Shown here in pieces: positions 27,503 through 27,565 of a DNA stretch of 64,000 bases. The position numbers were made by a program, and so were the translations under genes. Origin of the DNA: Escherichia coli (GTDB taxonomy: Bacteria; Pseudomonadota; Gammaproteobacteria; Enterobacterales; Enterobacteriaceae); the NCBI RefSeq assembly GCF_017348835.2, contig NZ_CP071375.1; one strand, given 5' to 3'. The notes below the pieces were generated by a model that saw only the letters and a program-made list of their open reading frames with translations, was not told the origin of the DNA and did not search any database. The stretch's first letter is position 1; each line of letters opens with the position of its first letter.

Positions 27503-27565
27503 CGGGCCGTTACAGCACATCACCGGGCCGTAACGACACGTTACCGGGCCGTTGTAGCTCGTTTT
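27503..27565. repeat. Three tandem ~21-bp direct repeats (iteron-like) with core CGGGCCGTT; candidate oriV
   Basis: CGGGCCGTTACAGCACATCAC / CGGGCCGTTACGACACGTTAC / CGGGCCGTTGTAGCTCG..., cores at 27503, 27524 and 27545, overlapping the 3' end of the repC-like gene. Confidence 0.55.

Follow-up and report, generated by a model that had tools for sequence, protein, structure and literature searches.

A group of short direct repeats lies at the end of a rep gene pair in a chromosomal island of Escherichia coli PE164. This raises the question of whether the island carries a plasmid-like replication origin, a decayed remnant of one, or repeats that serve another role. We addressed this computationally in a 64,000-nucleotide stretch of the PE164 chromosome (the window). 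We conclude that the repeats are, very probably, iterons belonging to the vegetative origin (oriV) in a PIME1-type element at the guaA 3' end. This interpretation is mostly not new, since the locus is a further PIME1 oriV with IncQ-plasmid logic; that the PE164 copy functions as an origin is something we infer from its sequence.

The island spans ~11 kb between guaA (33257-34834, minus strand) and yfgG/pdeF, and its GC content is 0.38-0.47, compared with ~0.5-0.55 in the flanks. It is arranged in the order int, a membrane-like 209-aa ORF, LuxR/HTH regulators, repA, a repC-like gene, a 675-bp intergenic region, traJ, trbJ, trbL and an IS3-family element, with repA, repC-like, traJ, trbJ and trbL all on the minus strand, as is int. 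PIMEs are integrative mobilizable elements found in Pseudomonadota, and many lie beside guaA; the reported hallmark of PIME1 is a divergent alpA and luxR pair with core genes oriented as int (10.64898/2026.01.12.698999). The PE164 island has a tyrosine integrase and is inserted next to the guaA 3' end; it has divergent alpA-type and luxR-family regulators, the LuxR identity resting on the RefSeq annotation since Pfam and NCBIfam scans gave no confirmation; its replicase, trbJ and trbL genes are oriented as int; and it contains an IncP-like oriT (inverted repeat and nic region) as well as four iterons downstream of the rep genes (27480-27563). These features fit the PIME1 subfamily. A search for att direct repeats across 21900-33400 found none, and yielded instead a family of KorB-operator sequences that we consider below. 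Coordinates are collected in the Table.

Table. Features of the island and its origin region in the window (positions are those of the 64,000-nucleotide stretch).
Feature	Position	Strand	Sequence or basis
Tyrosine integrase gene int	31762-32952	-	directly before guaA
LuxR family regulator gene, divergent from HTH regulator	29460-30431	+	PGAP annotation
HTH regulator gene	29152-29382	-	PGAP annotation
repA, IncQ-type hexameric replicative helicase	28331-29146	-	Pfam AAA_25
repC-like gene	27541-28314	-	257 aa from GTG at 28314
Probable iteron array, four 21-bp direct repeats, exact 21-nt spacing	27480-27563	-	homologous arrays in 51/54 related loci
Iteron unit 1	27563-27543	-	AACGAGCTACAACGGCCCGGT
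Iteron unit 2	27542-27522	-	AACGTGTCGTTACGGCCCGGT
Iteron unit 3	27521-27501	-	GATGTGCTGTAACGGCCCGCC
Iteron unit 4, degraded, core AGGCCTG	27500-27480	-	AGTGTGCTACAGAGGCCTGAT
A/T tract, then two CAGGNTAT-type short repeats	27430-27479	-	abuts last iteron
Hairpin/inverted repeat A	27390-27439		arms 27390-27412 and 27417-27439; 23 nt, 78% complementary
Near-invariant palindrome ATCGGCCnnnGGCCGAT with GGTTnnACGCCA	27363-27391	-	family comparison
Perfect palindrome GCAGATTTTAGCGGCTAAAATCTGC with IncP KorB operator (OB) core	27247-27271		one of four OB-like sites
AT-rich spacer, 66-72% A+T	27025-27225		between oriT and conserved origin blocks
IncP-type oriT	26934-26985	+	17-nt inverted repeat 26934-26950/26954-26970, then nic-region-like ACATGTCCTGCCC
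traJ, relaxosome accessory protein, first of traJ-trbJ-trbL	26500-26865	-	NCBIfam NF010451, 160 bits (cut-off 134)

The first-pass annotation had described three tandem 21-bp repeats at 27503-27565. The CGGGCCGT cores are indeed found at 27503, 27524 and 27545, at a spacing of exactly 21 bp, but the array contains four units and extends over 27480-27563 once its register is set on the minus strand by the family consensus AGCGTGNCACANCNGCCCGAT (plus strand, 27480-27570: ...atcaggcctctgtagcacactggCGGGCCGTtacagcacatcacCGGGCCGTaacgacacgttacCGGGCCGTtgtagctcgtttt). TRF detects a single array at 27503-27553, with a period of 21, 2.4 copies, 80% matches and a score of 67. A set of three CGGGCCGT cores at 21-bp spacing, with two mismatches or fewer, has a single occurrence in the 64-kb window, and none of 100 shuffles that preserved dinucleotide content contained it. 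The CGGGCCGT 8-mer has only one further occurrence in the window. The overlap with the 3' end of the repC-like gene noted in the first pass is present but small. The repC-like stop codon is at 27541-27543, and the overlap is therefore limited to the first, gene-proximal iteron, which covers the last seven codons; units 2-4 are non-coding. The stop codon of most homologues precedes all or most of the array. Taken with the shuffles, this leaves us giving no credence to a chance similarity or to a coding repeat at a protein C-terminus, despite 21 bp being equal to seven codons and several homologues reading into the array.

The origin reading had been tied beforehand to the repeats being kept in related elements, and they are. 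Our chromosomal sample held one genome per species (56 loci), and together with plasmids it provided 54 usable loci. Of these, 51 have an array with a 21-bp period and the consensus AGCGTGNCACANCNGCCCGAT, in most cases about four copies long, starting between -20 and +85 nt of the gene end. The three loci without a full array hold one unit (L011 and L023) or, in L039, two units followed by an insertion. In L011 (4762-4800) and L023 (4765-4800), the array has collapsed to a single unit and the downstream origin blocks are intact. Among distant homologues, the place, period and copy number of the array are kept and the unit sequence has changed: the unit is GTGTAGCATATTCCTGTTCGT in L003 (40% identity), CGTTCAGCAAATCCCCGG in L061 (47% identity) and GTACCGCAGCCGCCCGGT in L060 (45% identity). 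The lineage-specific variants GACTCACA, GTCGCACA and GTTCCCCA are each common to all copies of the array in which they occur. Arrays of the Xanthomonas type, which end with a 20-nt spacing, were placed one unit out of register by the automatic procedure, and their low identity values are therefore artefacts.

The same array is found on free plasmids. A tblastn search of plasmids with the repC-like protein returned eight records, with homologues at 62-65% identity in pUL3AT, pJF-707-type plasmids and pSMBC31-5K, and at 40% in a 5.2-kb C. braakii plasmid. All three plasmids examined (pUL3AT, pSMBC31-5K and the 5.2-kb C. braakii plasmid) carry a 21-bp array of 3.4-3.9 copies from the repC-like stop codon. 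At the nucleotide level, a blastn search of plasmids with the traJ-repC intergenic region found matches to the oriT end alone and no match for the iteron part. The IncQ-3 'cluster III' plasmids pUL3AT, pJF-707 and p435_c4, together with pSMBC31-5K, thus share the repC-like family with the island, and have 21-bp iterons (AGCGTGGCACACCCGCCCGAT) and CAGGATATT repeats directly after the repC-like gene; they differ in being free plasmids that have a primase-like gene as well as MOB genes of their own. The repC-like gene and its iterons are located at 8249-8995 and 1-71 in pUL3AT (L002) and at 2158-2991 in pSMBC31-5K (L001), the protein being annotated 'ABC transporter ATPase'. Because the literature describes IncQ-3 plasmids as lacking repC (PMC7557826), their initiator has gone unrecognised.

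What, then, is the protein encoded between repA and the array? PGAP calls it as a 253-aa 'hypothetical protein' starting at 28302, and NCBI names members of its family 'ABC transporter ATPase' or 'hypothetical protein', although the family is sizeable (one search gave 464 clusters, another 510 representatives). The protein has no sequence-level match in Pfam (E ≤0.001, including Rep_3 and PF06504), NCBIfam, PHROGs or PDB sequences, and no Pfam domain is precomputed for any of 120 listed homologues. When aligned to canonical IncQ RepC with hhalign, the C-terminal 44-46 columns alone align, at a probability of 24% for the single sequence and 61% profile-profile (E 8e-5, 46 columns); this match is suggestive of shared ancestry with canonical RepC. 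The predicted fold matches those of iteron-binding initiators (R6K pi and RctB) and has the tandem WH1-WH2 organization of the Rep_3 type. Foldseek against AFDB50 returned the protein's own family first, followed by 'Initiator Rep protein WH1 domain' proteins at E ~1e-11. We conclude that the gene encodes a predicted tandem winged-helix replication initiator, RepC-like in place and role. Its first-pass label of 'repC-like' is apt for its position and predicted initiator fold, but not for its family, since PF06504 is unmatched and the protein falls outside the canonical IncQ RepC family. Several repC-like proteins (e.g. P0058 and P0120) run into the iterons and carry ...TAAR C-terminal repeats of seven residues, because 21 bp corresponds to seven codons.

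Comparison with a closely related island shows how the initiator and the iterons are inherited. The window island and that of L004 (E. coli 2018-11-1BCC) are 94-100% identical across 24000-33300 (9.3 kb), outside divergent blocks. One block, at ~27400-28400, is strongly divergent (68-89%), and comprises the CAGGATAT repeats and iterons together with repC and the extreme end of repA; a smaller dip lies inside trbJ (~25700-26200, 82-87% identity). Between the two lineages, dS is 1.22 for repC, 0.155 for repA and 0.013 for traJ, while dN/dS for repC is 0.085, indicating strong purifying selection. The repC-like gene and the iterons behave as one exchangeable cassette that has been swapped between two E. 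coli lineages. The two islands also differ in gene content: the window island lacks the accessory/defence region of its relatives, which in the L004 lineage includes HigA, an ABC-three-component system, RecQ and DprA.

In IncQ plasmids such as RSF1010, a RepA helicase, a RepB' primase and a RepC initiator support strand-displacement replication. The island RepA is closely related to this helicase: it matches the RSF1010 RepA structure (PDB 1G8Y) over residues 3-266 with an E value of 4.3e-110 (phmmer), and is ~61% identical to the RepA of an IncQ1 plasmid. We used the IncQ1 plasmid pP35D as a stand-in for RSF1010 in comparing the origins. The island resembles RSF1010/IncQ in its homologous RepA, in the order repA-initiator-iterons, in having no DnaA box, and in having 3.5-4 direct repeats of about two helical turns beside the initiator gene (here four of 21 bp; in pP35D, 3.5 iterons of 22 bp located 34 nt after repC; in pRAS3.3, four of 22 bp). 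The comparison with IncQ oriV proposed in the first pass therefore holds for gene order, position and copy number, but the period is 21 rather than 22 bp and the initiator is a different one, unmatched by the RepC model PF06504. Moreover, a GC-rich and then an AT-rich segment follow the iterons in the IncQ1 plasmid, whereas here an AT-rich/short-repeat block abuts them.

The island also differs from RSF1010 in how replication might be primed. No primase gene was matched among the island ORFs, including in NCBIfam, Pfam and PHROGs profile searches, and ssiA/ssiB equivalents were not identified, though conserved hairpins exist; the small plasmid relatives do carry a primase-like gene (phrog_47, E 2.5e-9). 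A DnaA box (TTWTNCACA) is absent from the window intergenic region, and TTATCCACA with one mismatch or fewer is found neither there nor within 800 nt after repC in 16 relatives. With no DnaA box and no element-encoded primase, priming would therefore come from the host or a helper. Rep_3 initiators (R6K pi, F RepE and pPS10 RepA) and Vibrio RctB, to which the island protein has no sequence-level Rep_3 match, act in systems that use host DnaA and DnaB; the PE164 island differs in bringing its own IncQ helicase.

Beyond the iterons, the origin region has further conserved blocks. Almost every family member has, after the fourth iteron, a T-tract, two or three copies of CAGGATAT(T/C), a hairpin, sometimes a second hairpin, and a palindrome; the T-tract and the CAGGATAT(T/C) copies are also present in the plasmids (as a TRF 9-bp repeat, CAGGATATT). 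The window has plus-strand short repeats CCTGAATATACTG at 27433 and CCTGAATAACCTG at 27452, and we regard 27430-27479 as a candidate unwinding/helicase-loading region. The stem sequence of hairpin A differs between lineages, with compensatory changes at three pairs, and the hairpin is possibly a priming or loading signal. The palindrome that follows is conserved in sequence without covariation, which favors a protein site over a hairpin. Its window copy (27375-27391) reads ATCGGCCAAAGACCGAT, with one stem mismatch. Further along, between the KorB-operator palindrome and the origin blocks, direct repeats TACCTCATATGTCA and TACCTCAAGTGTCA lie at 21-nt spacing (27297-27331); this pair is common to the window and the L008 lineage.

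Experimental evidence for such an origin comes from a sister element. The M. morganii PIME1 is reported to amplify about eightfold after excision in a repA-dependent manner, and its 'repA-oriV' fragment to rescue a temperature-sensitive vector, a rescue abolished by mutation of either repA or oriV (10.64898/2026.01.12.698999). That origin is described as having four iterons along with a putative DnaA box (10.64898/2026.01.12.698999). A PIME1 locus of the M. morganii type has the order alpA, repA, repC-like, 3.7 x 21 bp, an AT-rich segment, oriT and traJ, and its counterpart of the alpA-type regulator matches Pfam Phage_AlpA. The PE164 locus shares with the PIME1 oriV the same guaA insertion, the gene set and order int, luxR/alpA, repA, traJ, trbJ and trbL, and the IncP-like oriT. 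It differs in that no DnaA box with one mismatch or fewer was found here or in 16 relatives, and the preprint's putative box is not reproduced for this origin family; in addition, the window copy is ~11 kb and without an accessory region, compared with the 22 kb published for the E. coli PIME1 (10.64898/2026.01.12.698999). In its available text, the preprint places the test of origin function in the M. morganii element only and not in the E. coli type. Conservation, covariation, the predicted initiator fold and this published sister-element origin together uphold the original proposal of an iteron-type origin beside a repA-helicase/initiator pair.

These data also bear on whether the repeats might be mainly regulatory, acting in autorepression or termination of the operon, in copy control by handcuffing, or in incompatibility, with the origin elsewhere in the island. 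In favor of such roles, the 3' end of the operon runs into the array, and the opposite strand has a weak terminator-like stem at 27545-27561. Copy control is also a function of iterons in other plasmids, among them R6K, P1 and F. However, the array is the only repeat block beside the rep genes in the small plasmids, canonical IncQ origins share its position and copy number, and the oriV mutations that abolished vector rescue were downstream of the rep genes (10.64898/2026.01.12.698999). Regulatory and initiation roles can, in any case, coexist. We consider a mainly regulatory array very unlikely, and retain the reading as oriV iterons.

The oriT and TraJ of the island are most similar to those of IncP plasmids of the pMCR_1511 type. 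Window positions 26868-26999 are ~80% identical to the traJ-traK oriT of the IncP plasmid pMCR_1511, and the window TraJ is 60% identical to that of pMCR_1511; on this similarity, ~50-kb IncP plasmids such as pMCR_1511 are candidate cognate helpers. IncP helpers pB10 and pKJK5 are reported to induce excision of PIMEs, and the E. coli PIME1, which has a 17-bp inverted repeat at oriT, was not mobilized by either (10.64898/2026.01.12.698999). The E. coli-type nic region (window 26964-26985; also L004, L006 and L009) is ACATGTCCTGCCC, with G for A in the YATCCTG core, compared with ACATATCCTG in pMCR_1511 and ACCTATCCTG in other PIMEs including the M. morganii type. This substitution may be linked to the reported non-mobilization by pB10 and pKJK5. 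An Rfam traJ-II RNA match (86.9 bits, 26883-26981, minus strand) spans the inverted repeat of oriT along with the greater part of the nic-like core, and the Rfam motif may in part model DNA-level oriT rather than RNA. We rejected a second candidate, in which GATCCTGA at ~27450 was read as an IncP nic and the inverted repeat at 27390-27439 as a TraJ site: GATCCTGA is the reverse strand of the CAGGATAT repeats found 3' of the iterons in all relatives, including plasmids with oriT elsewhere, and the true IncP-like oriT lies at 26934-26985.

Against the oriV reading stand the repC-like protein's lack of a sequence match to canonical RepC and the lack of a primase gene in the island. Several features count against an active origin in this copy, namely a degenerate array, a palindrome with a stem mismatch, and an ~11-kb island that abuts an IS3-family element. 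The array may thus be a decaying relic of a functional origin, which no longer fires while the island is kept by chromosomal integration only. Within-array identity is among the lowest in the sample (mean 0.63) and the fourth unit is degraded; the stem mismatch is absent from a near-identical Dickeya copy; the island is truncated next to the IS3 element; and the nic-core substitution and non-mobilization of the E. coli PIME1 (10.64898/2026.01.12.698999) point in the same direction. On the other hand, both rep genes are intact, with repC subject to the purifying selection described above. The array, degenerate as it is, has also been retained in Dickeya, Phytobacter, Citrobacter and 12 E. coli genomes. 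Furthermore, the array of the M. morganii type is equally degenerate (72% matches and a score of 63 in TRF), yet that type of element is reported to replicate (10.64898/2026.01.12.698999). We therefore consider a relic improbable, though less so than a purely regulatory array, and favor oriV iterons in a functional origin. The IS3-family element abutting trbL (22602-23815) carries an ALIL frameshift pseudoknot, and the neighboring pdeF (19722-21965) is annotated as a pseudogene.

The KorB-operator sequences provide a possible connection between the island and its helper. The motif TTTTAGC(G/A)GCTAAAAT has four copies in the island (26365-26386, 27252-27273, 30856-30877 and 31692-31713), three of which contain the exact RK2 KorB operator core ATTTTAGCGGCTAAAAG, taken as used by McLean et al. 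2025 (PMC11790492). With one mismatch or fewer, TTTAGCSGCTAAA occurs in the 64 kb at these same four places only, against 0.07 expected, and it is present exactly in 29 of 63 loci compared. From their sequence, these sites may have a role in helper sensing or repression, in partition hitch-hiking, or in titrating KorB.

These considerations suggest how the element would replicate. Integrase-mediated excision would yield a circle, with an IncP helper as the trigger in sister elements. The repC-like tandem winged-helix protein would then, by homology, bind the four 21-bp iterons, and this binding would open the adjacent A/T tract and CAGGATAT repeats. The IncQ-type RepA would be loaded at the opened block and the circle amplified, with priming by host or helper functions. 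The initiator and its iterons would act as one specificity module, inherited and exchanged together. A comparable lifestyle is known for SGI1, an IME that hijacks IncC functions: it is likewise integrated and mobilizable, and has a replicon of its own that becomes active only once a helper has triggered excision. The initiator of SGI1 is of the Rep_3 type, its helpers are IncC plasmids and its insertion site is trmE, and its genes are unrelated to those of the PE164 island. It also carries helper partition sites (PMC10954446), to which the KorB operators in the PE164 island are analogous.

The 2026 PIME preprint has already made the case for such a replicon, and the iterons by themselves therefore add little; RepA and RepC had been listed earlier as putative maintenance genes of GIsul2 and IncP islands (PMC5704250). 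In the available part of its main text, the preprint calls repA 'the replicase' and makes no mention of a helicase, primase, winged-helix fold, KorB or operators (10.64898/2026.01.12.698999). The identity and fold of the initiator, the repC-like gene and iterons in IncQ-3 plasmids, and the cassette swap are absent from the literature that we consulted. What is added here is that the initiator is an unannotated gene between repA and the repeats, with a predicted winged-helix fold and distinct from canonical IncQ RepC; that the same module drives small resistance plasmids (pUL3AT and pJF-707) that the literature calls repC-less; that the initiator and iterons have been swapped together between near-identical islands, providing a natural specificity experiment; and that IncP KorB operators in the island offer a testable route for helper sensing or interference.

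A broader proposal is possible, although we hold it only tentatively and consider it less likely than not. The repC-like protein and its iterons would constitute an unrecognised initiator/origin family, without a Pfam or NCBIfam model and overlooked in IncQ-3 plasmids, that works with IncQ RepA in the absence of a dedicated primase and behaves as a specificity cassette; the helper KorB, a ParB-type clamp, repressor and partition protein, may control or partition the circle, or be titrated by it. Helper sensing is stated to be unexplained in the preprint, which also reports reduced helper amplification (10.64898/2026.01.12.698999); the KorB link, if true, would explain both. For the biology of these elements, our reading means that guaA islands of the PE164 type carry a complete plasmid-like replicon, by which the excised circle would persist and amplify while awaiting the conjugation machinery of a helper.
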